DNA from: Fibrobacterota bacterium
GTDB taxonomy: Bacteria; Fibrobacterota; Fibrobacteria; UBA11236
Assembly (NCBI GenBank): GCA_043753995.1
Contig: JAYUVP010000249.1
Span: 39,684-103,683 of the forward strand
Direction: 5' to 3'
Length of the DNA: 64,000 bases
Shown: positions 13,636 to 52,095 of the stretch, piece by piece
Layout: each line of letters begins with the position of its first letter
Position numbering within the stretch: position 1 is the stretch's first letter
The notes under the pieces: generated by a model
Seen by the model: only the letters and a program-made list of their open reading frames with translations
Told to the model about the DNA's origin: nothing
The model's database searches: none
Translations under genes and position numbers: made by a program

Positions 13636-13649
13636 GAATGTCCTGAGGT

Positions 13650-14582: not shown

Positions 14583-14585
14583 GAC

Positions 14586-15350: not shown

Positions 15351-16117
15351 GATTTCTCCAAGGGCTCGTCATAATTGAAGCGGGCCGAACGCGTCCGGAA
15401 AGTTTCGTCGAACCAGGGAAAGGCAAAACCGTAATTGCCCTTGATATGGGTGTGATGCAAGGTGTGTCGACGGCAAGAAGAGAAAAGATGATTCAAGGCG
15501 AGCTTGGGAAAAACGGCATAATTCATATGGCCGATATTGTTCATGAAAAGACTCAAAGCCGGGAAGAGAATGATGGCTCCCATGCTCAGAGGCGCGAAGG
15601 CCATATAGGTCACCATGACGCTGCTCAGCAAGACGGCTTCGAACCAGTGAAAGCTATAGGTCGAAAAGGGAGTGGGCACAACCGAAAGATGGTGATGCCG
15701 ATGCACATGTCGGTAAAACCAGGGTAGGTGCAAGAGATAATGCGAGGCATAGAAATGAACTTCATTCCATAAGGTGAGCAGAATGAGATCGAGGACTAGA
15801 CGCCAGGGTGAATGAATCCAATCGATGTGAATCAGGCCCAGCCGCTGCAAGCCCAAGGTCAATCCACCATAAGCGCCGAAGACGAGAATGGAGATTAAGG
15901 AAAGTCTCACTTCACGCGTGATTTGCCGGGGTGGAATGGGGCGTGAATCGATGACGCGGCCAATTTTGAAAGTCGGAAGGACTTTTTGGGTGAGCTGAAG
16001 CGTGATAAAAGCCAGGGCGAAGTAAATGAAAGCAAAACCGAGTGCAACTAAGGCGGCAATTTGCCAGAGCCTAAGTTCGAACATGAAATCGCGTAGTCCG
16101 ATTTGCAAGGCCGTCAT
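15347..16117 (-). CDS. Fatty acid hydroxylase / sterol desaturase superfamily protein (paralogue 1)
   Basis: His boxes HYLLH, HVHRHHH, HTLHHTH. Shared motif FSTYSFHWFEAVLLS vs FSSLSFHWFEALLYS in paralogue 2. Confidence 0.7.
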   Translation of the reverse strand: MTALQIGLRDFMFELRLWQIAALVALGFAFIYFALAFITLQLTQKVLPTFKIGRVIDSRPIPPRQITREVRLSLISILVFGAYGGLTLGLQRLGLIHIDWIHSPWRLVLDLILLTLWNEVHFYASHYLLHLPWFYRHVHRHHHLSVVPTPFSTYSFHWFEAVLLSSVMVTYMAFAPLSMGAIILFPALSLFMNNIGHMNYAVFPKLALNHLFSSCRRHTLHHTHIKGNYGFAFPWFDETFRTRSARFNYDEPLEKS

Positions 16118-16356
16118 GCTGCGCTTTCTAGGCGAAGTATCACATCGCCAATGGTGGCGGCGGCCATCAATTCTTCCAAAGGGATTTCAGCCAGGCCGCT
16201 TTGATGCAGTTCATACTCCAATTCGAGAGCGCTTAAAGAGTCGAGCCCTAAATCCTTTTTCAAGGACATATCATGGCTCAGGGATTCGACTGGGCGATGG
16301 GAGACTCGGCTGATGGCTTGCATCACCTTGATTTCAATAGCAGGCATACGGGTCAA
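16114..16356 (-). CDS. Acyl carrier protein
   Basis: 80 aa with the phosphopantetheine attachment motif DLGLDSL. Start overlaps the KAS stop and its stop overlaps the hydroxylase start (ATGA). Confidence 0.75.
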   Translation of the reverse strand: MTRMPAIEIKVMQAISRVSHRPVESLSHDMSLKKDLGLDSLSALELEYELHQSGLAEIPLEELMAAATIGDVILRLESAA

Positions 16357-17567
16357 TCTTGATGACGCGAAAAAAGGAGGGAAACATTATTCGAGCCGAA
16401 ACCGAAAGAATTCTTGAGGATGTTTCGCAATGGCGCATGTTGATTCGCCGATTCAGTCGCTGTCATACCTTCCTGAAGGTGAAAGGCTTGCGGCAATTGC
16501 TGCTTCATCAAGGCTTGGACGCATAGAATGGATTCGAGGATACCACAAGCCCCAAGACTATGTCCGATTTGGTTTTTTGGAGCCACCACGAGCTTGCCGC
16601 CGAGTTCCTTGCCAAATACCGAATGCATGCCGAGATATTCGACTTCATCATTCTTCAGGGTACCGGTGCCATGCGCGCAAATGGCATCGATATCTTTGGC
16701 CTCTATTCCGGCGCAAGCTAAGGCTTTGTGCATGACGGCAATAATATCGCTCGCATCGGGCTTCGGTGCGACTGGATGATATGCACCTGAATTCTGTGCC
16801 ACGCCGGAAAGCTTTGCCAAGATCGGTGCGCCACGCCTGCGCGCCGACTCTGGTGATTCAAGTATAAGGAAGCCAGCTCCCTCGGCGAGTATAAAGCCGT
16901 CGCGCTCCGGGTGAAAGGAGCGTCCCGGCTGCAGGGGATCGCGTTGGGCGCTGAGCACTTTCAATTGCTTATAAGCATGATAATTGAAGGGTGAAAGCGG
17001 GGCTTCTGCGCCGCCCACCAAAGCGATGTCCCATTGCCCAGTAGCGATTTTCCAAAAGCCTTCAGCAAGGGCATTTGCGCTTGAGGAGCAGGCCGTAGAG
17101 ATGCAGAGGTTCGGACCGGTAATGCCGGTTTGTTGGGCTATCCATGACCCCAGGGCACTGGGCATCACCTTGGGGACGGTGAAGGGATGTATCGCGCGCA
17201 TGCCTTCTTGCAAGGCTTTGGCGATCATTTCTTCATGAAAGTCCAGACCACCGAGACCACTGCCCAGGCAAATGCCGATGCGATAGTCGGAAGTGTCGCC
17301 GGACAAGCCCGCTTGATCCAAAGCCTCGCGGGCAGCGATGATACCTAAGTGTACGCAGCGAGCAGAGCGAGCGAGAATTTCGGGTGGTAGTCGCTTGGCG
17401 ACATCGATATGGACCTTGCCAACCAAAACCGGATCGATAGCAAAACCGTCCTGAAATGAGAATTGGGCTTTGCCGGAAGACATTTCATCCCAAAAAGCAT
17501 CTACTCCGCAGGCGCGGCCGACGAGCGCACCCAAGCCGGTGATGACAGGAAAGGTTACCATCAACAA
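16353..17567 (-). CDS. Beta-ketoacyl-ACP synthase (FabF/FabB-like KAS I/II)
   Basis: 404 aa. Active-site Cys motif ISTACSSSANALAEG. His motifs (AHGTGT, IGHSLGA) in the expected order. Confidence 0.85.
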   Translation of the reverse strand: MLMVTFPVITGLGALVGRACGVDAFWDEMSSGKAQFSFQDGFAIDPVLVGKVHIDVAKRLPPEILARSARCVHLGIIAAREALDQAGLSGDTSDYRIGICLGSGLGGLDFHEEMIAKALQEGMRAIHPFTVPKVMPSALGSWIAQQTGITGPNLCISTACSSSANALAEGFWKIATGQWDIALVGGAEAPLSPFNYHAYKQLKVLSAQRDPLQPGRSFHPERDGFILAEGAGFLILESPESARRRGAPILAKLSGVAQNSGAYHPVAPKPDASDIIAVMHKALACAGIEAKDIDAICAHGTGTLKNDEVEYLGMHSVFGKELGGKLVVAPKNQIGHSLGACGILESILCVQALMKQQLPQAFHLQEGMTATESANQHAPLRNILKNSFGFGSNNVSLLFSRHQD

Positions 17568-17576
17568 CCCCTCAAA

Positions 17577-18158
17577 TCATTGCTCTTGCTCGGGCATATC
17601 GAATAAAAAACCGATCTGAAAAAACATCTCTAAGTTGGCTGACGCCCCACGCCTAACAAACGAGTTATTGTTCGATCCCATGGGAATAAAAATCTCGATA
17701 GCATTTCCGGCGGCCATCTTAAAGTGACCCGCCTGAAAATGGAATTTGCCCCCTGGTGCAATGAGGGCGTCCTCGGATTTGAAGGAACCATAGTAGTCGC
17801 GCTCACGATAATACCGATATCCGAATTCGATTTCAGGAGTAAAGCCCCAGCGGTAGCCCTGCCAAACGCTATAGCCAAAATAGATGGACGGGCTAAGGTA
17901 TTTGCTTGTCTTCGACTGGGTCTGAATTTGAATCAAATTGATAATTCCCGGCTTTAAACCGAATTCAAAGCGATCCACATGTCTTTCCAAAAAAAGTTCG
18001 ATGGGAAAAATGCCAACCGTGCCTCCGCTATAGCTACGGTCAACCTGGGATTCTCCAGCGGAGGACAAAATGAAACCGACTTGATTATCATAGGCGCTTG
18101 CTCCAGAGTGAAACAAGGGCAAGGTGCTGAGCAGGAATAAAAACCGCGGTAGGAACAT
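17577..18158 (-). CDS. Hypothetical secreted protein (Tyr/Gly-rich, possibly beta-rich), first gene of the lipid operon
   Basis: The ORF extends to 18251, but MFLPRFLFLLSTLPLFHSGASA at 18158 is a plausible signal peptide and avoids overlap with the divergent ferredoxin. No family assignment. Confidence 0.4.
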   Translation of the reverse strand: MFLPRFLFLLSTLPLFHSGASAYDNQVGFILSSAGESQVDRSYSGGTVGIFPIELFLERHVDRFEFGLKPGIINLIQIQTQSKTSKYLSPSIYFGYSVWQGYRWGFTPEIEFGYRYYRERDYYGSFKSEDALIAPGGKFHFQAGHFKMAAGNAIEIFIPMGSNNNSFVRRGASANLEMFFQIGFLFDMPEQEQ

Positions 18159-18183
18159 GGGGTGCAAAGTAATATTCCCAATC

Positions 18184-18483
18184 ATGAGCCAGCCTTCGTC
18201 ATCCCATGATTCTTGTCGCCAAAAGCCGGGTCTTTTCAAACCCATTGTCAATCATTCGCGCTGTGAAGGCAAAAGCGATTGCGTGGTGGTCTGTCCGGTG
18301 AATGTTTTCGAAGTGCGCCGCATCGAAGATTCTGATTTCGCGGCACTAGGCATACTGGCCAAGGTCAAAGTCATGGTCCATGGCAGAAAAACGGCCTATA
18401 CGCCCCGCGCCGAGGCTTGCGAAGCCTGCGGCCTATGCGTCACGGCTTGTCCGGAAAAGGCGATTCGCCTGATGAAGGTTTAA
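18184..18483 (+). CDS. 2x[4Fe-4S] ferredoxin
   Basis: Two Cys clusters: CEGKSDCVVVCP and CEACGLCVTACP. Divergently transcribed from the lipid operon. A start at MSQPSS (18184) is preferred over the listed 18124. Confidence 0.65.
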   Translation: MSQPSSSHDSCRQKPGLFKPIVNHSRCEGKSDCVVVCPVNVFEVRRIEDSDFAALGILAKVKVMVHGRKTAYTPRAEACEACGLCVTACPEKAIRLMKV

Positions 18484-18489: not shown

Positions 18490-21400
18490 TTAATTCGGCG
18501 GGGTTCCCCATTTGAACCAGGCATTCAAGGTGGCCAGTTCGGTGGGAGTGAGTTGCACACCCGAAGCGGGCATATATCCTGCGGATAGGAATGGACGATT
18601 GATGCGATCGTAAACCTTGCTTCGCGTCAAGGAGTCGGCGACAGTCGTGGAATCGCAAACCGCGGTGGCGTTCACCTTCCCGGGCCCGTGGCATGTCAGG
18701 CAGTAGGTGTTTAGAACGGTGGAAACGCCGGAGTTAAAAGGCGGCAAAACCGTATTGCGAGCCAAGGCATGAATAGGCCCGTCCGTGGCGGTGGCCGTGA
18801 TGGTTGTCGTGCCGGTGATCATTTTCAAGACTTGAACTTGGGTGGAGCTCACCACTTTCAAAACCGCAGGATTGCTGCTGGTCAAGGCATAGGTCTTGAG
18901 CGTGGTGGAATCTGGCGCGAAAACCGCTGTGCTTTGCACCGTCGTTCCCACCACGAGCCGTGGCAGGGTTAGGGCGATTCCCGTAGCCACCACATTCCCC
19001 ACGGTTACATTGAAATTCGCTGTTTTCGCCCCGTCGGTCGAAGTCACGCGCCATACCGAATTCCCCGCCGCTGTTCCCGATAATTGAGTTGTTCCTACCA
19101 GAGTGGCACCTGTACCTGACACCAAGGAAAGGGTATAGCCCTTATTTGTCGCCGATGACGGCGTCCAGGATAAAGTTGGCGCCTTGGTACTGCCAACAAA
19201 AAGGCTGAGGTTAGCCGCGCTCACGCTCTGCACCGGGACCGGGCCCACGACCACGGTGAAGGTGTCCTTGACCGTGGGATTTTGCACCGAAGTCGCGACA
19301 ATCTTCACCGAGCCCAATGCGGATGCCGTCACCTTGCCTCCGGGCAAAACCGTGACGCCCAAGCCCAAGGAGGTGAGGGTATAGCTCTTACTCGTCGCCT
19401 CCTCAGGAAAGGCGCCTACCTGTGGAATCACGGTGTCGCCGACTTGAAAGGAAGTGTCTGCTCCGACCAAGCTGTCGACGGGCCACGGAATCACGGTCAC
19501 TTTAAAGGACTTGGATTTCGCTCCTTCTTCGGTGGTCAATCCGACATTGGCCGATCCCACGTAGGCGCCATGAATTCGAATACCCGTGGGCGTGGTCACT
19601 GTGGTATCGAAGGAAACCAAGCTATAGCCCTTATTGCTCGCATCCCCCGGCGCAAAAGTCACCTTGGGGAATTTCGTGTCGCCAAGCCTCACCGTGTCTT
19701 CCGCCACCGTCACGTTTTGCAAGGGGACGAAATGGGCATTGAGCCAGCCCAGTAAAATGCCCAGCTGGCTGGGAGTCAAGTCGCCTTCAGCCGGCATGCG
19801 ATCCTTGTCGGTTTTCGCGAGTTGCAAGCGCCGTAGCGATTCCGCGCCCTTGATCAAGAAAACGCTGGAGTCTTGCAAGTTGAAAGTAATGGTGGGGCTA
19901 TGGCATTTGCCGCATTTCTCGGTGGTGATGGGCTTAACATGCGCGTCGAATTGCGGCGTCACGGCCATAGCGGTGAAGGTGGCCGTCTTGTCTCCATCTT
20001 CGGCGCGCACCGTGATTTTTGCCGAGCCCAATACCCCGGCCACCAGGCGATTGCCGACCGGTTTGATGGCGGCGCTATTGTCGCTTTCCAAGGTGTAATT
20101 CTTATTGGTGGCGTCATTCGGTAAGAAGACCACTCTGGGCGTGATGGTGTCGCCGAGGGCGATGGCGGTGTCCTTGGCAGAGAGGCTAAGCACCGTTTTC
20201 ACATTGCGGCCCAACCAGAGCAGCATCAAATCGAGATCGCGCTTGTCCATGGTGGTGTCGGCAGGCATATGCGCCGTGTTTCCGAAAGGCAAGGACAATC
20301 GCGCGAGGGCCTTGCTTCCACGGCCGACGAGTACAGCCGAGTCCTGCAGATTGAAGGTAATGGTGGGGCTATGGCATTTGCCACACCACTTCTTGGAAAT
20401 GGGTTGTATATCGGCAAAGGTTGGGCCTCGTACGGTCACCGTAAAGGTGTCCTTTGCTCCGCCGGCAGTTGCGGTAACCGTCACCTGCGCCGAGCCTTCG
20501 GCGCGCAAGGCGAGGCGCTTGCCGACGACACGGACTCGGGTGGTATCATCGCTTGCTATTTCAAATTCGCGCTCGGTGGCATTGGAAGGCATGAAGACGA
20601 TGTTCGGTGTAAGGGTGTCATAAAGCAAACCCGTGGTGTCCACCGCGTCCAGCGCAGTCGGGGCGATGCTCTTGTCGCTAATCGAGAATGAGAAGGTGGC
20701 CTTGGCGCTGCCACGGTTGGCCTGCACCGTCACCTGGGTGCTACCTGCGGCGAGAGCGACGAGGCGAAGCCCGCTCAGCACCTTGGCCTTGGTGGTGTCC
20801 GCTACGATCAATTGCACGCCCTTGTCGGTGGCGCCGTCAGGCTCCAAGGTCGGCGTGACTGTCACGGTATCACCGGTTTTGGCGCCGAGATTCGATACCG
20901 AGATGGAGCTAAGCAAGATCACCTTTTCGGTGATGGTCACTGAGAAAGACATACGGGCCGTGTCGCGATGGGCTCGCACTTCGATAGTGACCTTGCCCGT
21001 ATCACGGCATAGCACGGCATGGCCGCGCGTTCCCGCGCGCAAGGTGTCGACGGCATGCAGGCTGTATTCCTTGTCGGCGGCGGTGTCGGGACGCACGGTC
21101 ACCCGGGCATTCACCGTGTCTCCCGCCTGGCAGTCCAGATCTTCGGCTGTCAGTCGCGTGCGCGCCCTGTCTACCTGCGCCAAGCTGTCTTGATGCGCGA
21201 CACTATCGGCGAGGATGACGCTGTCCTTGCGGGCCTTGACGTCCACCACGGCGCTGTCGCGCTTCTGTCCTTTTTCGGCATAGTCGAAGCGCTTTTCAAA
21301 GGCCACGGCATTGTCTTTCAGCCCCGTGATGACGGCCGAAAAATTGGGCGACACGTTTTCGGGCAAATCGAATTGCACCGTGCTCTGGCCCGGCTTCAAA

Positions 21401-21597
21401 ACAAAGGTTTTGCTGAACAGGGTTTTGCCCGTGTCGAGTCCCTTAGGATAAAGCGAAACCTTCACGCTGTCGAATTTCCCCACCAGAGTGGAATCGAGCT
21501 GGAATTGCAATTCGGTTTTTTCCTTGGGATTGCTCAGGCAGGAAAATAGCCCGAGCAAGACAAAGCCGAGAAGCGAAAGGGAAAGCAGGGTTTTCAT
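18490..21597 (-). CDS. Giant surface lipoprotein with multiple Big_2-type Ig-like domains and three embedded CxxCH (PSCyt1-like cytochrome c) modules
   Basis: True start MKTLLSLSLLGFVLLGLFSC (lipobox) at 21597 overlaps the stop of the upstream gene (TAATG). Repeated Big_2-like segments (for example TLESDNSAAIKPVGNRLVAGVLGSAKITV). WCGKCHSPTITFNLQDS occurs twice, plus CLTCHGPG near the C-terminus, each followed ~40 aa later by MP...W, matching the PSCyt1 pattern. Confidence 0.6.
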   Translation of the reverse strand: MKTLLSLSLLGFVLLGLFSCLSNPKEKTELQFQLDSTLVGKFDSVKVSLYPKGLDTGKTLFSKTFVLKPGQSTVQFDLPENVSPNFSAVITGLKDNAVAFEKRFDYAEKGQKRDSAVVDVKARKDSVILADSVAHQDSLAQVDRARTRLTAEDLDCQAGDTVNARVTVRPDTAADKEYSLHAVDTLRAGTRGHAVLCRDTGKVTIEVRAHRDTARMSFSVTITEKVILLSSISVSNLGAKTGDTVTVTPTLEPDGATDKGVQLIVADTTKAKVLSGLRLVALAAGSTQVTVQANRGSAKATFSFSISDKSIAPTALDAVDTTGLLYDTLTPNIVFMPSNATEREFEIASDDTTRVRVVGKRLALRAEGSAQVTVTATAGGAKDTFTVTVRGPTFADIQPISKKWCGKCHSPTITFNLQDSAVLVGRGSKALARLSLPFGNTAHMPADTTMDKRDLDLMLLWLGRNVKTVLSLSAKDTAIALGDTITPRVVFLPNDATNKNYTLESDNSAAIKPVGNRLVAGVLGSAKITVRAEDGDKTATFTAMAVTPQFDAHVKPITTEKCGKCHSPTITFNLQDSSVFLIKGAESLRRLQLAKTDKDRMPAEGDLTPSQLGILLGWLNAHFVPLQNVTVAEDTVRLGDTKFPKVTFAPGDASNKGYSLVSFDTTVTTPTGIRIHGAYVGSANVGLTTEEGAKSKSFKVTVIPWPVDSLVGADTSFQVGDTVIPQVGAFPEEATSKSYTLTSLGLGVTVLPGGKVTASALGSVKIVATSVQNPTVKDTFTVVVGPVPVQSVSAANLSLFVGSTKAPTLSWTPSSATNKGYTLSLVSGTGATLVGTTQLSGTAAGNSVWRVTSTDGAKTANFNVTVGNVVATGIALTLPRLVVGTTVQSTAVFAPDSTTLKTYALTSSNPAVLKVVSSTQVQVLKMITGTTTITATATDGPIHALARNTVLPPFNSGVSTVLNTYCLTCHGPGKVNATAVCDSTTVADSLTRSKVYDRINRPFLSAGYMPASGVQLTPTELATLNAWFKWGTPPN

Positions 21598-22418
21598 TAT
21601 TTCACCTTGGTCACGACGGTCGTCGTTTGCGTGCCGGGATCGCTCATGAGCATAATGGTGGTGATGCCGACTAGAGTCACCGCAGCTGCACCTCCCGCCA
21701 CCCACAGCCAGGTTTTATTGCCTTTGCCGTCGCCGGAGGTCGCAGCGGCGTTACCCCCCGCCTGAGATGCCGGATCCGAGGTCTTGGCACCTGCCGACCC
21801 AATAACCGCATTAGCTCCCGTGTCAGGCCTCACCTCGATGAGATTACGCCCGGTCGAGTCAATGGGATAGCCGAAAGTCTTCAAGTTCTTGCGTACGCGC
21901 TCGCGCTCGGCCACGCTATCGCTGTCGCTGGCGGTGCGATCATAACGCTTGCGCACCTCACGAAACATGTCCAGAATGGCATCACCCACTTCGAGGTCTT
22001 CCAAATCTTGGCGCGGATCGAGCTTAAGCATTTGATACAGAAAAGATTCTGCCTTGCGACGCGTTCCCATGTCGGCGCCATACACCACACCGAGGTATTT
22101 ATAGATGAAAATGCTGTCTTCCTTGTCGCGAATGCGGCGATCGCGGCGCATGTTTTCCAAAAGGGCGATGAGTTGATCGAAGTCGCCGCCATGATAAAGC
22201 TCTTCCACCGTTTTTTTATCGAGCACGGCTGATTTTTTCAACTTGGTCGCCGAGGTTTTCGCGGGCGACGCAGCGGGGGTGGCCTTGGTCGTGTTCGTTG
22301 AGTTCGCGGTCGTAGTTGCGGGCGTGGCTTTTTCGGGTTGCGGCGTTGCCGACCATGAAGTCATGACCCCAAAAACCGTAAGCGCGAGAAACCCGGCCAA
22401 GGTGCTGAAAAACCTCAT
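21597..22418 (-). CDS. Hypothetical secreted, C-terminally membrane-anchored protein with TPR-like core (module A small subunit)
   Basis: Signal peptide MRFFSTLAGFLALTVFGVMTSWSA, then a Thr/Ala/Pro-rich linker, a conserved core (DSIFIYKYLGVVYGADMGTRRKAESFLYQMLKLDPRQDLEDL) and a C-terminal TM helix (WLWVAGGAAAVTLVGITTIML). Paralogue of 25268..25936. Confidence 0.5.
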   Translation of the reverse strand: MRFFSTLAGFLALTVFGVMTSWSATPQPEKATPATTTANSTNTTKATPAASPAKTSATKLKKSAVLDKKTVEELYHGGDFDQLIALLENMRRDRRIRDKEDSIFIYKYLGVVYGADMGTRRKAESFLYQMLKLDPRQDLEDLEVGDAILDMFREVRKRYDRTASDSDSVAERERVRKNLKTFGYPIDSTGRNLIEVRPDTGANAVIGSAGAKTSDPASQAGGNAAATSGDGKGNKTWLWVAGGAAAVTLVGITTIMLMSDPGTQTTTVVTKVK

Positions 22419-22582
22419 GTGTACACCCCTTTTCACTACGCAAAGGTATCAAAGCGATTCGAACGGCTTCAAAGCATGATACACTTGCGGGGGTGGCTTC
22501 TGCCTCCCCCGGCTTGGCCCGCAAATATCTCCAAGCCCGGTCGGCCTCGCCTTCCCCACCGGCGACCTACCTTTGCCTGCCT

Positions 22583-25150
22583 ATGTTCTCGCCAAATTCA
22601 AATGCGAAGCCCCGCCCCGAAGTGCTGGCTCCCGTCGCCAGCATGGAAATGGCTCAGGCCGCGGTGCAAAACGGCGCGAATGCCATCTATGTGGGCTTTC
22701 CCGGTTTCAATGCGCGGGGCCGCACGCCGGATTTGGATCCCACGGCTTATGCGGAATTGGCCCAGCTCTGCCGCTTTCACGGGGTCAAGGTTTATGTGGC
22801 CCTCAATGTGCTCGTTTTTGAAGACGAGCTCGCCTCCCTCCTCGACACGGCCCGCACCCTCATCGCCTTGGGCATCGATGCCTTCATCGTGCAGGATTTG
22901 GGGGTCGCGCGCCTGTTACGTCGCCTGCATCCGGGCGTGCGCTTGCATGCTTCGACGCAAATGACGGTGACGGCTCCCGAGGCGGTGGCCTTGACCGAGG
23001 ATTTGCATCTGGCGCGATATGTCCTAGCGCGCGAGCTTTCCCTGCAAGACATCGAAGCGGTGCGCCTTGGCACCGATAAAGAGCTGGAAGTCTTCGTGCA
23101 CGGGGCCTTATGCGTTTCCTATTCCGGGCAATGCCTCACTTCCGAAAGCTTCGGAGGACGGTCGGCCAATCGCGGCCAATGCGCGCAAAGCTGCCGGCTC
23201 GACTATGATTTGCTCGTCGACGGAGAAAAGCGAGATTTAGGCGAGAAGCGCTACTTGGTTTCCCCGCAAGATCTCTGCGGCCTCGACGAAGTGCCGGCTC
23301 TCGCCGAATTGGGTGTGAATAGCCTCAAAATCGAAGGCCGCCTCAAGACTCCCGCTTATGTGGCCGCCGCCTCCAAAGCCTATCAAGAGGCCGTGCAGCG
23401 GGCCATGCCTGCGAAGAGCGAGGACGGCATTCCCACCGTCGATGCCTTGTCCGCCAAGGAAGCTCGGCGTGATTTGGCCGTTACTTATTCGCGCGGCTTT
23501 TTCTCAGGTTGGCTTCACGGCGTGGATCATCAAGCCTTGGTACCCGCTACCTTCAGCCATCATCGCGGCCTAGCCCTGGGGCCGGTGCTTCGGCGCGAAG
23601 GCGATGCCGTGCTGGTGGCCGGGCCGCGCCGGCCGCAGCGTGGCGATGGCGTTTTATTCGTGGCCACCGAAGGCATGCCTTCGGATGACGGCGTGGCGGG
23701 CCGGGTTTATGAGGTCGAGTTCGCCCGCGAGGGGAATTGGCTGCGCTTCGACCGTAACTTACCCGTGACGCGCATCGAGGCCGGCTGGGTAGCCTATCTC
23801 AATGATTCTCCGGCCTTAGAGCATGATCTTACCGCCTCCTGGCGGGATCGCGAAACCCAGACCCGAGTCCCAGTCATTGCCGCCGTGCAAGCCATTCCCG
23901 GCGAGCCCTTGCGCCTCACTCTCGACGATGGTCTCCGGCAAGTGACGGTGACGGGCGAGGAACCCCTCCTGCCCGCGCGCAATGCCCCGCTCGATGCCGG
24001 GCAATTAAACGAAGAGCTGGAGCGCATGCAAGGCGAGGGCTTTCAGCTCGAAAGCCTCGACGCCCACATCGCCGGGCCCGTTTTCCTGCACGGCAAGGCC
24101 TTGCGCAAATTGCGCCAAGCCGCTGTCGCCGAATTAAAAGCGGCACGATCCCTGGCCGCTCCTGTGGCGCTGGCCGAGGACGCGGCCGTGCTGTCCTGGA
24201 TGGAAGAACAAGCTGCCGAATTGCGTTCGTCGGCTTCCCTGCCTGCCTACGCCTCCGAGCCTGCACCCACCGCGGCCCCCCGCCTTCATGTGTTGCTGCG
24301 CGAAATCGCCCAGGTCGAAGCCCTGACGCGCTTGGCGGAGAGCGGCGTGCATACGGTTTATCTCGATTTCGAATATGGGCGCGACTATAAACCCGCCCTC
24401 GAAGCCTTGCGCGGCGCGGGAATTCGAGCGGCCTTGGCCACCACGCGCATCATGAAGCCGCTGGAAAAGCACAATCTCACCGTCATCGAAAAACTGCGCC
24501 CTGACGCTGTGCTAGTGCGCAACTTGGCAGCCTTGCAGGCCCTGCGTGCCACGGGACTACCCCTGATCGGCGACTTCAGCCTCAATGCCGCCAATAGCCT
24601 CACCTCGGGGTATTTGCTCGGCAAGGGTTTGCATCGATTGACGCCGAGCTACGATCTCAATCAGGCCCAATTGCTGGACTTGATCGGCGCGGCGGGGGGA
24701 CGTCACTTCGAAGTGACGGTGCATCAATTCTTGCCCGCCTTTCACATGGAGCATTGCGTTTTCGCGGCCTTCCTGAGCCAGGGGCATAGCTTTCGCGATT
24801 GCGGCAAGCCTTGCGAACGCCATCGCCTGGCTTTGCGCGATCATACCGGCGCCGAGCACCCCGTCAAGGCCGATCAAGAATGCCGCAATACCATGTTTCA
24901 TGGCCAACCGCAATCGAGCGCGCGCCTGGTGCCCCAGCTTTTGGCTGCCGGCGTGCGCGACTACCGCGTGGAATTGCTATGGGAAGGACCGGCCGAAATG
25001 GTACGGACCCTGGGGCTTTATCGCGACCTGCTGACCTCGGCTCGACCCGCCGCCGAGGTTTACGCCGAATTGCGCGTGGGCGAGCGCTATGGCGTGAGTG
25101 AAGGTCAATTACACCAAACTTCGGTATGGAAAGACCGGAAAAAGAAATAG
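22583..25150 (+). CDS. Peptidase U32 family protein with two tandem U32 domains (collagenase/PrtC/RlhA-like)
   Basis: First domain: PEVLAPVASMEMAQAAVQNGANAIYVGFPGFNARG...VFVHGALCVSYSGQCLTSESFGGRSANRGQCAQSCR. A second, U32-like half follows (VYLDFEY...HMEHCVFAAFLSQGHSFRDCGKPCERH). The listed ORF start (22493) is probably an N-terminal extension. Confidence 0.8.
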   Translation: MFSPNSNAKPRPEVLAPVASMEMAQAAVQNGANAIYVGFPGFNARGRTPDLDPTAYAELAQLCRFHGVKVYVALNVLVFEDELASLLDTARTLIALGIDAFIVQDLGVARLLRRLHPGVRLHASTQMTVTAPEAVALTEDLHLARYVLARELSLQDIEAVRLGTDKELEVFVHGALCVSYSGQCLTSESFGGRSANRGQCAQSCRLDYDLLVDGEKRDLGEKRYLVSPQDLCGLDEVPALAELGVNSLKIEGRLKTPAYVAAASKAYQEAVQRAMPAKSEDGIPTVDALSAKEARRDLAVTYSRGFFSGWLHGVDHQALVPATFSHHRGLALGPVLRREGDAVLVAGPRRPQRGDGVLFVATEGMPSDDGVAGRVYEVEFAREGNWLRFDRNLPVTRIEAGWVAYLNDSPALEHDLTASWRDRETQTRVPVIAAVQAIPGEPLRLTLDDGLRQVTVTGEEPLLPARNAPLDAGQLNEELERMQGEGFQLESLDAHIAGPVFLHGKALRKLRQAAVAELKAARSLAAPVALAEDAAVLSWMEEQAAELRSSASLPAYASEPAPTAAPRLHVLLREIAQVEALTRLAESGVHTVYLDFEYGRDYKPALEALRGAGIRAALATTRIMKPLEKHNLTVIEKLRPDAVLVRNLAALQALRATGLPLIGDFSLNAANSLTSGYLLGKGLHRLTPSYDLNQAQLLDLIGAAGGRHFEVTVHQFLPAFHMEHCVFAAFLSQGHSFRDCGKPCERHRLALRDHTGAEHPVKADQECRNTMFHGQPQSSARLVPQLLAAGVRDYRVELLWEGPAEMVRTLGLYRDLLTSARPAAEVYAELRVGERYGVSEGQLHQTSVWKDRKKK

Positions 25151-25267
25151 CGGGAAGGAGATCACCTTTTTTCTTCTCAAATGTCAAAAGGGGATGTCCG
25201 TGTACACCCCGCAAATCGGCCCGAAATGGCTATCTCCAGGGCCTCGCCTTAGGTGGAGACTTAATAC

Positions 25268-25936
25268 ATGTCTAGTCCTATTTCCCCCGTTTCTGTCCTG
25301 CTCTTTGCCCTTGGCTTGCCCGTATTCGGTGCAGCTCCCCAGCCATCCTCGGCGACGACTTCGGCACCGATGGCGAAAACCACCTCGTCCCCGAGTGTCT
25401 TAGATACCGCGGTGATTCATGGCGCCTATGCCGACGGCGATTTCGAAAAGGTGACGAGTTCGCTAGAGCCCATACTCGCCGCGAAAACCGTTTTGCCCAA
25501 GGCCGACAGCATTTTTCTTTTTCGCCACCTGGGCGTGATTTATGCCAAAGACCCAGGCACGCGCGAAAAGGGGAAATACTGCTTTCGCAAATTGCTCGAT
25601 GTCGATCCGCAAGCGCAAATTCTCGATCTCTATGCCACCGATGAGATCTATCAGGTCTTTCGCACCGTCCAGGCCGAATGGGACTTGTCTCATCCCAATG
25701 CCCAAAATCAAGCCGCCTCCTCCTCCAATCGCGTCTCCGCCGCTCCTGCTCCAGTCATGGAGCCCGCCGCTCCCCCTGCGGCCAAGCCCGCGAAGACGCA
25801 ATCCTGGAAACGCTATGCCGCCGTGGGCGGAGCCGTTGCTGTCACCGCCGGGTTAACCACCTGGTATTTGCTTTCTTCCCAAAAAGCCGACAACAAAACC
25901 GTGACTGTGGAAGTCGATCCCGCCCAGCCGAAATGA
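25268..25936 (+). CDS. Hypothetical secreted, C-terminally membrane-anchored protein with TPR-like core (module B small subunit)
   Basis: Signal peptide MSSPISPVSVLLFALGLPVFGAAP. Core DSIFLFRHLGVIYAKDPGTREKGKYCFRKLLDVDPQAQILDL is homologous to 21597..22418. C-terminal TM helix (YAAVGGAVAVTAGLTTWYLL). Confidence 0.5.
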   Translation: MSSPISPVSVLLFALGLPVFGAAPQPSSATTSAPMAKTTSSPSVLDTAVIHGAYADGDFEKVTSSLEPILAAKTVLPKADSIFLFRHLGVIYAKDPGTREKGKYCFRKLLDVDPQAQILDLYATDEIYQVFRTVQAEWDLSHPNAQNQAASSSNRVSAAPAPVMEPAAPPAAKPAKTQSWKRYAAVGGAVAVTAGLTTWYLLSSQKADNKTVTVEVDPAQPK

Positions 25937-28900
25937 ATAACATGAAAAAACTCTGTTTGCCCCAGTTTTTACGCCGCGCTGGCCTGCTCACGGGCATGGC
26001 TTTCGGTTTTGCCTTGCTGGCTTCTTTCGCCTTATTGCCCACCGCCTGCACCAGCACCGAGGGTGGCACTGATTTCGAAATTGCCTATGTCGATCGAGAT
26101 AATCTCACGTCTTTCGACTCCATTGTCGTGCTTCTCAATAAGGAGGGCTCCGAAAAGCCGGACACCCTTTTCAAGGGCAAGCTCACCGACAGCACGGTCT
26201 TGCGTCACTTGAAAGTTCCTGGTAACTTGCAAGGTACGGTGACTATTTCCGTGCAGGGCTTCAATCATGGCGAACTCGCCTTGGAACGCCATACCACGGT
26301 CGACGCGGACAAGCAAACCGTCGCCGGCACCGATTTGAAGCACAGCTCCCAAGGTCGCATTCGCTTCGCCGAACCTTCCCTGAAAATGAAAATCGGCGAT
26401 ACCGCTGCCATTCCAGCATTGGATATCGAGCCCTCCGAATGGAAAGACAAGGAAGTCACCTTCAGCTTTCAGGAAATCAAGGTGCTCGCTCTCATCGCCA
26501 AGAACAAGCTCGTGGGTTTAGCCCGCGGATCGGCGCGCGTGGTGGCCACCCTCGTCGGCGATAGCACCGTCACCGACACCCTTTTCGTGCAAGTCGTTGA
26601 TCCCGAGGCCGATAAAATCACCGTCCGCGTCTCGCCTGACACCTTGCGTCTCACCGCATTGGGCGCCTCGCTTTCCCTCAATGCCGAAACAACGCCTCTC
26701 TACTCGCCTCTCACCTGGAGTAGCGCCGATGATACTGTGGCCACCGTCGATGCCAATGGCTTGGTGCGTGGTTTGAAGGTCGGCAAGACTTGGGTTCGTG
26801 CCCGTTCTACTACCGACAGCTCCGGCGCGGACTCGTCTTGGGTCGTCGTATCGGGAGCCGTGCCAGTGGAAAGTGTCCGTTTCGCCCGCTCCACCCTCAG
26901 CTTATTCGAGGGCGGCGCGGCCGACAGCGTCAGCGTTCAAGTGCTCCCGACCGACGCCAATCCCGCGACTGGCCTGCGTCTCATCGGCAAGGCCGTGACG
27001 CTCAATGGCCGCCGCTTCATTCCCGTCGATACGGGATCCGCCATCGCCATCGCTTATTCCCTGGTGGACACGACCAAGACCGACACCTTGCGCATCAGCG
27101 TGAAGCAAGCCTTGACCATTCAATCCTTCCGGATTAAGCCGGACACCTTGCGTCTCTATCTCGGCGGGCCGGATAGCGCTTTCTCCATAGTTGTCGATCC
27201 TGCCTCGGCGGGCCTGGACGCGGTATGGCATTTGGCCAAGCTTGGCATTGCCAGAGTTTCCGATTCTGGCTTGGTGAAAGCCATTGGCGAAGGCCAGGTT
27301 TTAGTCTTGGCCCAAGCCCTCGCCGACAGTAGCAAGCGCGATACCTCCCTGATTCAAGTCGTGCGCGATATGCCCAAGCTCTCCGTGGGCAATGCCGTGG
27401 TGGCCAGCCCGGAATCCACGATCGATTTCGTGCCCAAGGTCGAGCAAGAATTCGGCGGGGTGACTCGGTTCTGGTGGGATCTCGATGGCAATGGCACTTG
27501 GGACGACAGCAGCGATGGCCTTAAAAACCTGAGCCGCAAATATGACGCCGTTGGCGAAACCACGACGCATTTCAAGGTGCGCGATGCCGAAGGCAATGAG
27601 GGAATGGCCGATCGCAAGGTGACCATTACCAAGGGGCCCCATGTAGTCATCCTGGTTCCTCCGGACGGCTTTGTCACCAATAAGAAAACCGTCGAGGTGA
27701 ATTGGGAAGTCGACCATGTCAAGCAAGACAAGCAAACTCAAGAGCAATTGACCCAAGAGGGCCCCAAGACTTTGGTGCGCTCCGCCAAGGATGCCAATGG
27801 CAATGAAACCGTCATTTCCATCACGGTATTTCTTGATACCAAGGCGCCCGAGCGACCCCTGGTGAGTTCGGTGTCGCCCACCAATAGCAAAACGCCGAAC
27901 TTCAGCTGGCGCAGCGGCGGCGGAAAAGGTGCCGGACTCTATCGGTATCAAATCGACGCTGAACCCGGCGCGAACCAAAGCGAAACCGGCGACACCACCT
28001 TGACCTGGCCCGCCGATTTGAATGCGGGCAGCCACACCTTGTTTGTACAGGAGCGCGACACAGCGGGCAATTGGTCGGCTAGCGGCAGCGCCAAGGTCAT
28101 CATCGACTTGACCGCCCCGCCAGCGCCGACGGTAAGTGCCGTCAGCGGCCCGAATAGCACGAATCTCCAGGTGACCTTTGTCTGGAAAGGCGCCGAGGAA
28201 GGTGCCCTGCGCTATCGCTATCAAATCGATAAGGAAAAATTCGAAGGCGGTGCCGTCGAGGTAGGGGACACCACGGTGACGGTGATCTTGACCGAGGGGC
28301 ATCATGCCTTTTATTTGCAGCAGCTCGACAGCGCCGGCAATGCTTCGACGCCGGGCAAGGCTTCGGTGAATGTGGATGTGACGGCCCCCAATAAGCCTTC
28401 CCTGCGTTCGCTCACGGGCGTCTGGTCCACGAATGGCAAACCCACTTGGATTTGGAAAACGGGTGGCGGCGCCGGCAATGGCAAATTCCGCACTCGCCTC
28501 GACACCGCCGACTTGAGCGCTAAGAGCTTTTTCACGGATACGTCCTTCACCCCCGCAGCTGCCATCGGCGAAGGCCCGCATCGACTCTTCGTGCAAGAAA
28601 TGGACAGCGTGGGCAATGTCTCACCTGCCGAATCTCTCACCATCACCGTGGACACCCAGGGGCCTTCAGCTCCGATTTGCCTTGAGCCCGCCGACAATGC
28701 CTGGGTCAATACGCAAAAGCCGACCTGGAAATGGAAAGGCGGCGGGGGCGGTGACGGACGTTATTATGCCTTCATCGCGGCAGCTTATACTCCTGACACC
28801 TCGACCCGGGTCACTGACACCACCCTTACTCCGCCGGCCAATCTCCCCGAAGGCCAAAAAATTCTCGGAGTGAAGGCCTATGATGCCGCAGGCAATGTCT

Positions 28901-30546
28901 CGCCCCTTACTACTTGCCGCGTTCGCATCGACGTGACGCCGCCCGGCACACCCGTGAGCGATACCAGCAATCACTTTTATGTCACTTCCGTGTTACCTAC
29001 GCGGAAATGGTCCCGCGTTGGCGGCGGCTCGGGCATGTATCGCTTCAAGCCCGATGATTCCACCTTGACTTCCGGCGCTACTTCCTTGGTCGGCCCAGGA
29101 AGCTGGACGGCACCTGCACCGCTTCCAGAAGGCAATCACTTCCTCGGCGTGCAAGAAATCGACAGCGCAGGCAATGTGTCGGCGCCGCTTTTCATGCCAT
29201 TCAAAATCGACACCACGGCTCCTGCCGCACCGGTCATCACCCAAGTGCAACCCGGTCCGTCTATCGGTTGCCCAAGCACGGTCGCTACGATCTGGAGCTA
29301 CACAGTTGCGGCGGATGCCAAAACCAATTATTACCAAATCGACTCGGCTGCCTTGCCCAGCCCGGTAGCTTCTCCGGTGAGCATCACCAGCTATCAAATA
29401 CCGACAAGCCCGTGCATTGCTGAAGGAGCACATTCCTTTAATATTCGCACGGTCGACAGTGCCGGTTTGCAGTCGCCCATAGCCTCTTCGACAACGCGCT
29501 TCATCACTAGGCAAGAAGCGACGGGGTTAACAGGAACGAGTGCCACCGGGCTGAATCTGGGTGTTTATAAGACGCTCTATTATTTGGGATACATCCGCAG
29601 TGGCGTAGTCAACGTGCTCACCGGAAAAGAAGTGGGCGAGATCCCGCTAAATTCAGGCACTTTGTCCACCCTTGTCAATCCGAATTATTTGCGCATGGCC
29701 GTAGGCCCCGGTGGAGAGCTCGGCATCCTCGACGGCATTCAAACCTCGGAAGGCACGGGCAAGGATTATGAATTGCATGTTCTCCTTCCCAGTGGAGAAA
29801 ATATTACCGTGGGCCTGCCCCGATGGCTGACCCTTCCCACCTGGTTCGCTTTGGATTTCAATGCCAAGGGTGATTTGTTTTTAGCCTACAATGACCTCGA
29901 TAATGAGGGGCGACTTTCGATTTGCATGGCAGTAAATCCCACAGGAGGAAAATCCACTTGCGTGGAACAGGTCCAGGGCATCAGTTCGCCCGGTGCCAAG
30001 CACATATTCATGACGGCGCGTCCCGCCGTTTTGGTCACCCTCGTGACTGCCGAGGGTTACCCTGAGGTTTATGGCCAGACCTCGGTGGAAGAAACAAAAT
30101 CTTATCCCCAAGTCATCACCGGATTGGAAAAAACCCCCATCAATCACTTCGGCTTGGGCGTGGTGAAAAGCACGGCTTCCATCATGAACTTCTCGCCCAC
30201 TGGTAGTCCGTTTTTTCAGGCCATCACCTTTAGGAATCTCACCGGCTGGACCGCAGGCAAGGTGCAAAGCACACCCGCTGCATTGGGCTCGGGCATGGGC
30301 GTCATGGATGTGGATCCCAGCGGCCGACCCTATGTCGTCATGGGGGGCAAAATGTGGGGTTATTCGGGCGGCAACTGGTATTCGGTTTCCACCAATGGCC
30401 ATGATTTCTCCGCCACACCCATGCTGGATTTGAAAGTGCGCGACGACGGCACGCCGCTGCTTTTCTATTCCACGGGCAATGCGGGCAAGCTCAATACCAA
30501 TCTCTTACGCACCGGCTTTGAATTGCCAGCCACCCAGGCGAGGTGA
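25933..30546 (+). CDS. Giant surface lipoprotein: N-terminal Big_2-type Ig-like domains, six tandem ~90-aa repeats, and a C-terminal ~350-aa domain of unknown function
   Basis: Start MNNMKKLCLPQFLRRAGLLTGMAFGFALLASFALLPTAC (lipobox) overlaps the stop of 25268..25936 (ATGA). The listed ORF 25678.. is an out-of-frame-context extension. Repeat consensus: TAPxxP...P(T/N)FxWxxGGGxG...YRYQID...(E/A)GxHxLxVQExDxAGNxS. Confidence 0.6.
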   Translation: MNNMKKLCLPQFLRRAGLLTGMAFGFALLASFALLPTACTSTEGGTDFEIAYVDRDNLTSFDSIVVLLNKEGSEKPDTLFKGKLTDSTVLRHLKVPGNLQGTVTISVQGFNHGELALERHTTVDADKQTVAGTDLKHSSQGRIRFAEPSLKMKIGDTAAIPALDIEPSEWKDKEVTFSFQEIKVLALIAKNKLVGLARGSARVVATLVGDSTVTDTLFVQVVDPEADKITVRVSPDTLRLTALGASLSLNAETTPLYSPLTWSSADDTVATVDANGLVRGLKVGKTWVRARSTTDSSGADSSWVVVSGAVPVESVRFARSTLSLFEGGAADSVSVQVLPTDANPATGLRLIGKAVTLNGRRFIPVDTGSAIAIAYSLVDTTKTDTLRISVKQALTIQSFRIKPDTLRLYLGGPDSAFSIVVDPASAGLDAVWHLAKLGIARVSDSGLVKAIGEGQVLVLAQALADSSKRDTSLIQVVRDMPKLSVGNAVVASPESTIDFVPKVEQEFGGVTRFWWDLDGNGTWDDSSDGLKNLSRKYDAVGETTTHFKVRDAEGNEGMADRKVTITKGPHVVILVPPDGFVTNKKTVEVNWEVDHVKQDKQTQEQLTQEGPKTLVRSAKDANGNETVISITVFLDTKAPERPLVSSVSPTNSKTPNFSWRSGGGKGAGLYRYQIDAEPGANQSETGDTTLTWPADLNAGSHTLFVQERDTAGNWSASGSAKVIIDLTAPPAPTVSAVSGPNSTNLQVTFVWKGAEEGALRYRYQIDKEKFEGGAVEVGDTTVTVILTEGHHAFYLQQLDSAGNASTPGKASVNVDVTAPNKPSLRSLTGVWSTNGKPTWIWKTGGGAGNGKFRTRLDTADLSAKSFFTDTSFTPAAAIGEGPHRLFVQEMDSVGNVSPAESLTITVDTQGPSAPICLEPADNAWVNTQKPTWKWKGGGGGDGRYYAFIAAAYTPDTSTRVTDTTLTPPANLPEGQKILGVKAYDAAGNVSPLTTCRVRIDVTPPGTPVSDTSNHFYVTSVLPTRKWSRVGGGSGMYRFKPDDSTLTSGATSLVGPGSWTAPAPLPEGNHFLGVQEIDSAGNVSAPLFMPFKIDTTAPAAPVITQVQPGPSIGCPSTVATIWSYTVAADAKTNYYQIDSAALPSPVASPVSITSYQIPTSPCIAEGAHSFNIRTVDSAGLQSPIASSTTRFITRQEATGLTGTSATGLNLGVYKTLYYLGYIRSGVVNVLTGKEVGEIPLNSGTLSTLVNPNYLRMAVGPGGELGILDGIQTSEGTGKDYELHVLLPSGENITVGLPRWLTLPTWFALDFNAKGDLFLAYNDLDNEGRLSICMAVNPTGGKSTCVEQVQGISSPGAKHIFMTARPAVLVTLVTAEGYPEVYGQTSVEETKSYPQVITGLEKTPINHFGLGVVKSTASIMNFSPTGSPFFQAITFRNLTGWTAGKVQSTPAALGSGMGVMDVDPSGRPYVVMGGKMWGYSGGNWYSVSTNGHDFSATPMLDLKVRDDGTPLLFYSTGNAGKLNTNLLRTGFELPATQAR

Positions 30547-32802: not shown

Positions 32803-35800
32803 ATGAGGAAGGGGTATCTCCGAAAATCCGGGGTGGAATCGCTATTCCCCAATTCCGGAATTAGGCAGGGCCTGCGCCTGGCTTGGCTGGGCCTTTTTTT
32901 TGTTTTTGCCACTTCTTTGCGCGCCGGGAATGTGGTGGATACCATAGCCAAGGCCGGCGATTTGGCATCCATTGGAACTCGTTACAGTAATAAAACCTTG
33001 GCCGCCAGCGATACGCTTTTTTTGCGCTTTGCCATACGTAGCGGATTCGGGTCTCTATCCCTGTCGAATTTCTCCGCTGCCGCGGTGGTGCTTGAGCCGC
33101 TGGAGCCATTCGATTCGACCTTGGCCTTGCATTTCACAACCGAATTCATGCGCATGGATTCGGTTGCGGCCACCGTGGTCATTCGCAATTTGAATATCAT
33201 CGCTGATGGCGCCAATCCCCGCTGGATAGTAGGCAACAACAACTATCCGAATGGTTCCTTGCTGATCTCGAAAGTGCAGGTATCGGGTTCATCGAGTTGG
33301 CCTGAAAAATTCATGGGTTGGTGGGGCGACTCCACTTCAACGGTGACCTTTCGTCAATGCGCCTTGGTGGCGCCGGCGGCCACCGGGATTTGGCGGTTCC
33401 TCAATCTGGGCCGGTTTGAAATGAGCCGCACCTTGATTCGCGTTGCCGGGCAGTTCAAGGTAGAGGCCTATGATGCCGTGACCTTTCAGGGGAATACTTT
33501 GGTGGCTTGCGGTTTTGATTTGGATGGATTGCCTACGGGCTATTCAACGGGTGTCGTGCAAGTGCAGAACAATCACTTTGTGCAAGCGGGCAAGGCGGCC
33601 ACTGAGCCCATAAATGTGGTGTCCAGTTTCGCCCTGCTGGACCCTACCTTGCAAACCGGTAATGTCCGTGCTGGTTATTCGGCTATTTTCAAGCCGGGCA
33701 ATGTCACTAATATTCTTGAGACGCCCAAAGACCGCTTCACTGCCGCCGACGGCGTTCCCGATTCCTCCGAAACCTGGCTGTGGCGTATCCCAGGCGATAC
33801 CCTGCGCGGCGCCTTCGCCTCGGGCGGCCTCCCGGCTTGGAATACGCGCCCCGGGGAGACCTCGCGGATATTCTCTCCGGGACTTCCCGCCGATTCGGGC
33901 ATCAAGCTGTCCTTCGCCGCCTGCGAAGTTCCCCGAAAGCTGGGATTGGTCTATGCGAAAGTCACTTATCCCCAGGAGTTGGTGTATCGTACGCGTTACC
34001 GTAGCGACACGGCTTTGCGGGTCACCGGCCCCGTCAGCGTCACCAAAATCCAATTCCCCGATGCCTTGCCCGTGGGCGACAATGCCGTCTTGCTTTTCGG
34101 GTCGAATCCCTTGCAAATCAAGGCCAGCAGCGATTCGTCGCGAGCGGTGTATACCTGGCCTCTCGACTATGTCGAGCCCGTGGTACCCGCGGCGGCCTTA
34201 ACCAGAGGAATTTCACGCGGTAAAAACATCGTTTTTCAGGCGGGAAATTCGGGCTCGGTGCAATGGCGCTTTCCGGAAGTGCAACGCGCCGGTCATGTGA
34301 TTATTACCGCCGACCCTGCTAAGAATTTCACTCGCCCCAATTTACGCCTGCTGACTTTAGAGGCGGGCAATACCGCCATCACGCTTTCCGGTGATTTCGA
34401 ACCGAAAACGGGCGACTCCATCACCTTGGGTCTCAAAGTGGTGAAAGCCTCTTGGCCATTCGATGCCGACAAAGTCGAACTGTGGCGGCAAACCGGTGGC
34501 GGCGATCCGGTTTCCCTGGGGCATTGTAAAGTGGATCCCGATTCGGGGCGATCCTTTTATCGCTGCGGTTGGGTATTGCCCCCCAAGGCGGGGCAGCCCT
34601 ATGGCGATATCAATGGAGCCTATTCGCTGACCGAAAAGCTCGCCGTGCCGGTAGGCAAAAGCGCGATGACCCCGTTCTCTTCCGCGTCGCTCAATGGCAT
34701 CAGCATGGAGTTCACCGCCAATCAAGGCTTTCAATTTTCAACCAGCTCGCAATTCCTCGATTCCCTGGCGTCGCCTTCCTTGGCCTACCTGTCCAACTTC
34801 AGCAAACGCGCGCTCTGGAAATGGCCGGGTCGCGAACAAGACTCTCTTTCCAAAGCGGTATTGAAGTGGACCGTGGCCGACTCGCAAGCGCAGCTCTTTC
34901 GCTTGAATTCGAAAACGGGCGAAGCCCTGCTTTATAAGGGCCAAGGTCGGCAGAATGGTGTCCTCTCCGTGGATTTGGGGCTGCATGATACCGATGTCTT
35001 TTTCGCCCGCAAATACAGCCTACCCCGCTATCTCAGCGGCGAAGGCTTTGACACGGCTTTTCGGGGTTTTGAGGTGAAGCATTTGCAGCTGCAGAATCCC
35101 TCGGATATGGCGATTGACTCTTTTTCCGTGTCAGGGAAAAAGTGGAGAACCGAGCGCGACATACGTAAAGCCTTGCGACTTTCCGGGCGGGGCCTGATTG
35201 TCTTGAGGCCCTTCGATATGATTTTGCCGGCGGCGAAAGACACGGTGGATTCGGTTTATTGGGTTCGCAGCCTTGGAAATGAATCGGAGATTCTGGATTC
35301 CGCAGCGGCCAATTGCAGCGGAAATTCCTGCACGGTCAAGGTTCCCAAATTCAAGGATAGCCTTTGCCTAGTCATGGTCGGCAAGTGGCCTACGAAAAAG
35401 CCCATCGACACGTTACCGCCAATAGACACCACCCAGAAGGGTGATACGGCCATTGACTCTATTCCCAAGCCGCCGGATCCCCAAACCAATCCGACCCCCG
35501 ATCCCCCTAAGGAACCCGAAATCAAGGTGGCCGTGCGTGATCAAGCGCAGGTCCTGGCCAACGGTACCATTCTCCTCATTCCCGGCATTCCCGATTCGCT
35601 GGCCAAGGCAACGAAGTCCATTACCGTGACTTGTTTAACCTTGAGTCCGCTCGGCGGGCCCCAGGCGGTGGCTTTGAAACCGCTAAAGCCAGGAGATTCG
35701 ATTTTACTCCGGCAGGGCAAGGCATGGGACTTGGGGTATCGTCTCAGTTACCTAGACAAAAAAGCAACGGTTTTGGCCCAGTCCGCCGATTCGCTTTTGC

Positions 35801-52088: not shown

Positions 52089-52095
52089 GAAGGTC

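Follow-up and report, generated by a model that had tools for sequence, protein, structure and literature searches.

A 64,000 nt stretch of a contig from a Fibrobacterota bacterium (JAYUVP010000249.1, positions 39,684 to 103,683 of the forward strand; assembly GCA_043753995.1) carries two gene pairs, here called modules A and B, in which the gene for a small exported protein is directly followed by that for a giant predicted lipoprotein. The whole stretch is referred to as the window, and positions are counted from its first letter. The pairs are copies of a cassette in which two elements stay constant: the small protein, and a domain of the giant that lies next to the lipobox (the N-domain). 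Neither the small-protein family nor its pairing with a giant has been described previously, and the cassette is so far known only from metagenome-assembled genomes (MAGs) of uncultured members of the class Fibrobacteria. It is a serious possibility, although we stop short of calling it probable, that the small protein serves its cognate giant as a dedicated periplasmic escort or holding partner, and possibly as a tether. How lipoproteins are transported to the cell surface in the Fibrobacteres-Chlorobi-Bacteroidetes (FCB) group is still an unresolved question; the cassette is abundant and couples a new helical-repeat family to a new lipobox-proximal domain, and its pairing therefore supplies two concrete candidate partners for binding and export. 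The two domain families are definable, and so offer annotation handles for hundreds of genes of Fibrobacteria MAGs that are currently labeled hypothetical.

A paired cassette of Fibrobacteria

Module A lies on the minus strand, with the gene for small A (21597..22418; 273 aa) ahead of that for giant A (18490..21597; 1035 aa), and module B lies on the plus strand, with small B (25268..25936; 222 aa) ahead of giant B (25933..30546; 1537 aa). Small A was recognized from the map of open reading frames (ORFs), from its full-length identity to a database protein (P0001) and from its score against the family profile (217.6 bits), and small B from its similarity to small A and a profile score of 199 bits, so that the two span 199–218 bits; the profile finds exactly these two copies in the window and no third. 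Between the divergent modules lies a gene for a double-domain U32 peptidase (22583..25150, plus strand), which matches Peptidase_U32 (PF01136) with 276 bits in two stretches and also DUF3656. Its ORF opens at 22493, and the likely start at 22583, which is also the one chosen in an independent gene call, gives a protein of 855 aa.

At both junctions the stop codon of the small gene overlaps the start of the giant gene. In module A the sequence AAATAATGAAAA (AAA-TAA-TG) forms a 1 nt overlap, TAATG (21595..21599, minus strand), and a Shine-Dalgarno-like AAGGTGA lies within the final codons of small A (AAG GTG AAA), 5–7 nt ahead of the ATG of giant A. In module B, AAATGAATAACATG (AAA-TGA) gives a 4 nt overlap, ATGA (25933..25936, plus strand), and an alternative ATG for giant B is found at 25942, 6 nt past the stop of small B. 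An independent gene call on a second assembly of the same DNA reproduced all four gene boundaries and both overlaps. An earlier reading made from the DNA sequence alone (the sequence-only reading) had proposed these coordinates and strands, the intervening U32 gene, the overlaps and, from them, co-translation of each pair; the ORF map and the gene call bear out the first three, and the overlaps at both junctions support the last in the form of translational coupling.

Upstream of both small genes (22419..22460 and 25180..25215) there is a candidate element of the form AAAAGGGG(A)TGT...GTACAC, and a TAccTTTG box, resembling the Bacteroidetes-type -7 element, is situated about 30 nt ahead of the ATG of small A. 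Either may be due to chance, and scans for sigma-70 promoters and terminators gave nothing above the chance level.

A first search for relatives of the small proteins returned only 21. With a family profile, 533 matches at E ≤ 1e-3 and 412 at E ≤ 1e-10 were found among 1.84 billion cluster representatives, and a later profile search of a 90%-identity database gave 262 at E ≤ 1e-10. All of the named matches are hypothetical proteins of Fibrobacteria, Fibrobacterota or Fibrobacteres MAGs. Multiple copies occur, with at least four in one MAG and two or three on single contigs.

The genomic context was surveyed at 79 metagenome loci, 45 of which had at least 2.4 kb of downstream DNA and 64 at least 450 nt. 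At 39 of the 45 loci, a giant ORF (≥690 aa, same strand) with a lipoprotein-type signal begins between -20 and +175 nt from the stop of the small gene, an adjacency to a lipobox gene that is also typical of Slam genes. About half of the giant starts overlap the stop of the small gene, a share that may be over-counted because the most upstream start was taken. The N-domain was detected within 900 nt downstream at 55 of the 64 loci, a partly circular count since the profile was itself built with about 24 of these N-domains. Independent gene calls also show the pair in L001, L002/L003, L010 and L090. When the neighbors at 46 loci were clustered, only the small and giant gene families recurred, and no conserved third gene (transporter, sortase, peptidase or other) emerged; a cluster of proteins of about 600 aa near the cassettes of nine loci was not consistent in position.

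Small proteins and their giant partners

Small A and small B are 30% identical over 172 aa (BLASTP, E = 4e-24). The similarity falls within the non-repetitive core, outside the low-complexity regions, which confirms that they are paralogues, as had been proposed. Both consist of a short Sec-type signal peptide, a linker rich in Pro, Ala and Thr, a core of about 120 aa, a second low-complexity linker, a hydrophobic segment and a tail. The segments were located by a hydropathy scan; that of small A is WLWVAGGAAAVTLVGITTIMLM (21642..21707, minus strand), followed by the tail SDPGTQTTTVVTKVK, and that of small B is YAAVGGAVAVTAGLTTWYLL (25817..25882, plus strand). They are rich in Gly and Ala, are preceded by a W-x-W motif, and are followed by a tail of 12–29 aa with a conserved T-x-V-x-V-like pattern. 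A C-terminal hydrophobic segment was detected in 141 of 150 family members.

In an AlphaFold2 (AF2) model based on a 17-sequence alignment, the predicted local distance difference test (pLDDT) score exceeds 90 only for residues ~62–166, which together with the lower-confidence residues 167–185 form six helices arranged in helical hairpins (core of small A, 21864..22235, minus strand). Everything outside the core is predicted to be disordered, including both linkers. The closest structural neighbors of the core are TPR adaptors and chaperones (Cns1, TOM70, BamD, PilF and NlpI), and Foldseek gave no significant match in the PDB. By sequence, neither the small proteins nor the isolated core had a match in Pfam or NCBIfam; specifically, no TPR family was matched by either small protein at E ≤ 0.01, nor by the isolated core at E ≤ 5, and searching PDB sequences with a profile of 150 family members produced nothing meaningful. 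The label 'TPR-like' that the sequence-only reading had attached to these proteins therefore applies at most at the level of the fold and not at that of sequence. Taken together, the predictions describe a Sec-exported protein whose compact, TPR-like core of six helices is flanked on each side by a disordered linker, with a single hydrophobic anchor at the end. A C-terminal sorting signal was considered for this end and rejected, because small A and small B match no NCBIfam/TIGRFAM model of this type (PEP-CTERM, GlyGly-CTERM, MYXO-CTERM or the type IX secretion C-terminal domain) and the tail that follows the transmembrane segment has a net acidic rather than a basic character.

Similarity between the two giants is weak, and is seen over the N-terminal ~190 aa (BLASTP, E = 2e-4) and then in Big_2 repeats (E = 9e-4). 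The sequence-only reading had taken Big_2-type domains as their common N-terminal element. Such repeats are indeed common to both, but they come second, and the first common unit is the new, family-specific N-domain of about 90 aa, which begins straight after the lipobox (giant A, residues 21–115, 21253..21537, minus strand; giant B, residues 40–130, 26050..26322, plus strand). The two N-domains are homologous, as judged from the N-terminal BLASTP match and from alignments. AF2, run on a two-row alignment of the window sequences only, predicts a beta-sandwich, with seven strands in giant A. Neither the Pfam and NCBIfam scans of the N-domain nor a search of a 5.8-billion-protein database with its profile (E ≤ 1e-3) returned any match.

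Lipoboxes were read from the sequence using the pattern [LVI][ASTVI][GAS]C. Giant A has a typical one (LFSC, Cys20), while the signal of giant B ends in PTAC at Cys39, with an atypical residue at -3; the cysteine is invariant in 36 giants. Asp is absent from +2, and acidic residues cluster at +5 to +8 (about 40% Asp/Glu, against a background of 13.6%). These two features suggest that the giants may be targeted to the outer membrane and possibly to the surface.

Big_2 (PF02368, gathering score 22.8) is matched by both giants (27.5 bits in giant A, 38.2 bits in giant B), each with multiple internal repeats. In giant A, the order after Cys20 is N-domain, three Big_2 repeats, cytochrome c (CGKCH), one Big_2, cytochrome c (CGKCH), four Big_2 and a final cytochrome c (CLTCH). 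The three cytochrome domains, all of the monohaem type, span residues 396–470, 553–625 and 955–1035, with CXXCH at 405, 562 and 966 and a downstream Met-Pro in each, and an internal repeat map shows that the unit of Big_2 plus cytochrome has been duplicated (48% identity). Cytochrome_CBB3 matches the whole protein with 36.9 bits (cut-off 27) through the C-terminal domain, whereas the isolated segments all fall below the cut-off (25.4 bits for the C-terminal and 13–16 bits for the two internal domains). Giant A thus has CXXCH, a distal Met and, over the whole protein, a family match, as is characteristic of class I c-type cytochromes. Giant B has no CXXCH. Its signal with Cys39 is followed by the N-domain, Big_2 repeats, a PKD-like unit, about six Big_13/OmpL47-type repeats (Big_13, 100.7 bits; an NCBIfam OmpL47-type barrel model is also matched) and a C-terminal domain of 360 aa (residues 1176–1537, 29458..30546) for which no family match was obtained even at E ≤ 5. 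This domain may be a divergent propeller; other giants of the family end in propellers of the BNR/Sortilin type.

A Pfam census of 36 partner giants shows that the passenger domains vary while the N-domain stays constant. Big_13 was found in 25 of them, Big_2 and Glucodextran_B in 18 each, PKD_4 in 15, Y_Y_Y in 14, Cadherin-like in eight, PSII_BNR in six and Beta_helix in four. Cytochrome_CBB3 occurs in just two, giant A and its orthologue at L011. Giant B therefore has a typical architecture and giant A a rare one, that of a lipoprotein combining Ig and cytochrome c domains, in a phylum best known for cellulose degraders that live by fermentation.

Possible roles of the small protein

If the small protein is an escort, translational coupling would ensure that it and the giant arrive together and in a constant ratio. 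As the giant entered the periplasm its N-domain would come out first, at the spot where the coupled small protein had just been inserted, and the helical core of the latter could bind it there. The small protein would then accompany or hold the passenger of 1000–1500 aa through translocation, lipidation and transfer to the outer membrane, and probably to the cell surface, possibly staying on as a lasting tether. The two copies in the window, which are old paralogues, would serve different passengers, with the U32 gene as a bystander. In favor of this proposal are the paralogy of the small proteins, the size of the family and its multiple copies, the widespread pairing, the correlation between the identities of small cores and those of N-domains (Spearman 0.40, Mantel p = 0.001), the constancy of the N-domain amid changing passengers, the TPR adaptors and chaperones among the structural neighbors of the core, and the residues that follow the lipobox cysteine of the giants.

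The closest analogue among described systems is Slam (surface lipoprotein assembly modulator) with its surface lipoproteins. Slam proteins have a TPR N-domain and a 14-stranded DUF560 barrel, and 52% adjoin lipobox genes (PMC5449769). The cassette resembles them in that a lipobox protein is encoded beside an envelope protein whose TPR-type domain is predicted to be periplasmic (PMC5449769), in the presence of multiple paralogous pairs per genome, and in having modular, putatively surface-located lipoproteins as the presumed substrates. It is not a member of the Slam family, because the small proteins have neither the DUF560 barrel nor a match to TPR_Slam (Pfam, NCBIfam). They are also just 200–270 aa long and are anchored by a single hydrophobic helix, or rarely by an 8-stranded barrel of the OMP_b-brl type; their partners are Ig-repeat giants rather than TbpB-like folds, and the lineage is Fibrobacteria, whereas that of Slam is Proteobacteria.

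Fibrobacteria and Bacteroidetes are usually placed in one superphylum, FCB, and we know of no dedicated small partner gene for the surface lipoproteins of Bacteroidetes. The export signal of the latter consists of K, S or Q and then at least two D/E at about +3 to +6 from the cysteine, and is position-sensitive (PMC5080379). The giants are reminiscent of these lipoproteins in having an acidic cluster soon after the +1 cysteine and a predicted N-terminal beta-sandwich spacer (PMC5080379), but their cluster is at +5 to +8. BamD, the PilF/PilW pilotins, NlpI, YfgM and CcmI show no sequence relationship to the small proteins, which differ from them in the cleaved signal peptide combined with a C-terminal anchor, and in that every copy is linked genetically to a single client of its own. 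The giants themselves resemble the Lig and OmpL47-type proteins of Leptospira, lipoproteins built of Big_2 and Big_13/OmpL47-type repeats, but have their own family-specific N-domain and a small partner encoded upstream (obligatory by this comparison, and found at 39 of 45 loci); giant A, in addition, intersperses cytochrome c domains among the Ig repeats. The Fibrobacter literature describes canonical TPR proteins in surface complexes and nothing that resembles the cassette.

Several points weigh against the escort proposal. Support for the interaction, the localization and the surface exposure is not direct, and the mirror-tree correlation can come from co-inheritance alone. The acidic cluster of the giants is further from the cysteine than the position-sensitive signal of Bacteroidetes would have it. 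Some family members have no giant lipoprotein downstream (P0209/L078, L026/L027 and L008). On the P0209 contig and at L078:6749-9330, the small-family gene lies between a gene for a 1187 aa Transgly protein (PBP1-like) and one for an FHA-SLT lytic transglycosylase of about 530 aa, and at L026:1804-3210 and L027:3583-4990 there are tandem small genes, the second overlapping the stop of the first, in place of a small and a giant gene. In P0166 (406 aa; L008:628-1848, also L009:650-1870), the core is fused to an OMP_b-brl-type barrel that replaces the linker and transmembrane helix. The barrel, an 8-stranded type ending in GYHF and with a faint model match, is followed by a heptosyltransferase gene and no giant. 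Finally, charged residues around the hydrophobic segment are distributed unevenly, with 380 K/R against 112 D/E before it and 186 K/R against 304 D/E after it, which is the opposite of what the positive-inside rule predicts for an inner-membrane anchor oriented N-out/C-in. Together with the barrel-bearing relative, this bias makes it uncertain in which membrane the small protein is anchored. As a separate observation, the sub-branch with Transgly and FHA-SLT neighbors may be linked to peptidoglycan, and is perhaps the ancestral member of the family.

The charge bias and the barrel-bearing relative fit a different arrangement, in which the small protein is a structural stalk or anchor of the outer membrane: the Gly/Ala-rich helix, or a barrel, would sit in that membrane with the core beneath it, and the beta-like tail would reach the giant in a stable surface complex instead of a transient escort. 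The short tail with its T-x-V-x-V-like pattern and the long disordered linkers on either side of the core would also suit such a stalk. We nevertheless consider it unlikely, as single alpha-helical anchors are rare in the outer membrane and have no evident insertion pathway there, neither the helix nor the tail is modeled with confidence by AF2, and the barrel variant P0166 is itself without a downstream giant.

Less likely again is that the small protein is a general adaptor of the envelope or of peptidoglycan, comparable to LpoA or CpoB, with its linkage to the giant a convenience of the operon and not a sign of a specific complex. TPR-like adaptors regulate penicillin-binding proteins (PBPs) in Proteobacteria, which provides a precedent, and the sub-branch located between the Transgly PBP gene and the FHA-SLT gene (L078) could be read in this way, but the many paralogues per genome, each tied to a giant of its own in which the N-domain is conserved, and the frequent stop/start overlaps argue for a dedicated partner. 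An extended version of the surface role appears improbable to a similar degree. It would make the small proteins a surface-display device specific to Fibrobacteria, a Slam analogue assembled from unrelated parts, which would cross the outer membrane once (as an alpha helix or a barrel), capture the N-domain with the core and use the tail to aid translocation or anchoring; module A would then display Ig-spaced cytochromes for extracellular electron transfer.

The sequence-only reading had described the two modules as a duplicated and diversified cell-surface system arranged around the U32 gene. The gene pairs are paralogous and, given the pairing at 39 of 45 loci, look like parts of a diversified cell-envelope system, but they are not a local duplication around U32. 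The example that this reading gave, an adhesin with its anchor or chaperone, is still an inference. The small cores of modules A and B are 34% identical and the N-domains 23%, and each is closer to relatives in other genomes; the modules are therefore old paralogues, of different subfamilies that diverged anciently. A unit of three genes centered on U32, in which the peptidase would act on the neighboring surface proteins or be co-regulated with them and the inverted arrangement would be functional, is very unlikely. The U32 gene does lie between the modules, on the same strand as module B and ending 117 nt upstream of small B, and at L001 a U32 gene (66% identical) adjoins the module-A orthologue; however, among 90 loci this adjacency is confined to the window and the closest relative (L001/L011), so U32 is taken to be an incidental neighbor. 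Neighbor clustering, as noted above, gave no third recurrent gene, and the best matches of this type of U32 protein are cytoplasmic hydroxylases of tRNA or quinones, such as TrhP and UbiU. The three-gene unit was rejected on this synteny. A 267 aa gene ahead of a 1286 aa gene at L001 was considered as the equivalent of module B and is not homologous.

CcmI is a membrane-anchored TPR protein, and the three CXXCH motifs with downstream Met-Pro and the Cytochrome_CBB3 match of giant A might suggest that small A is a CcmI/CycH-like apocytochrome chaperone for a haem-bearing client, but this is the most doubtful explanation of all and is largely refuted by the partner census, with cytochrome domains in only two of 36 giants, no CXXCH in giant B, and no match of the small proteins to TPR_CcmH_CycH or any other TPR model in Pfam or NCBIfam.

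Other genes in the window

Beside giant A is a lipid-type biosynthesis cluster (10838..18251, minus strand), which contains genes for DUF6999, a KAS III fused to a haem-oxygenase-like domain, a fatty acid desaturase, two FA_hydroxylase proteins, ACP and KAS, as well as a 193 aa protein with no family match. Convergent with it is a gene for a 99 aa 2x[4Fe-4S] ferredoxin (18184..18483, plus strand). Downstream of a dTDP-glucose dehydratase-like gene there is a 1420 aa ORF (32803..37065, plus strand) that lacks a lipobox and matches nothing in Pfam or NCBIfam. Near the left end of the window, a 674 aa protein (3328..5352, plus strand) carries an eCIS_core domain, a marker of extracellular contractile injection systems, and has the housekeeping genes for YidC and MnmE as neighbors. 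A set of genes for complex I (NADH:quinone oxidoreductase) is found at 50652..60609 on the minus strand, including Proton_antipo_M subunits and a fused 20-kDa/30-kDa subunit, and is consistent with a respiring organism able to use c-type cytochromes.

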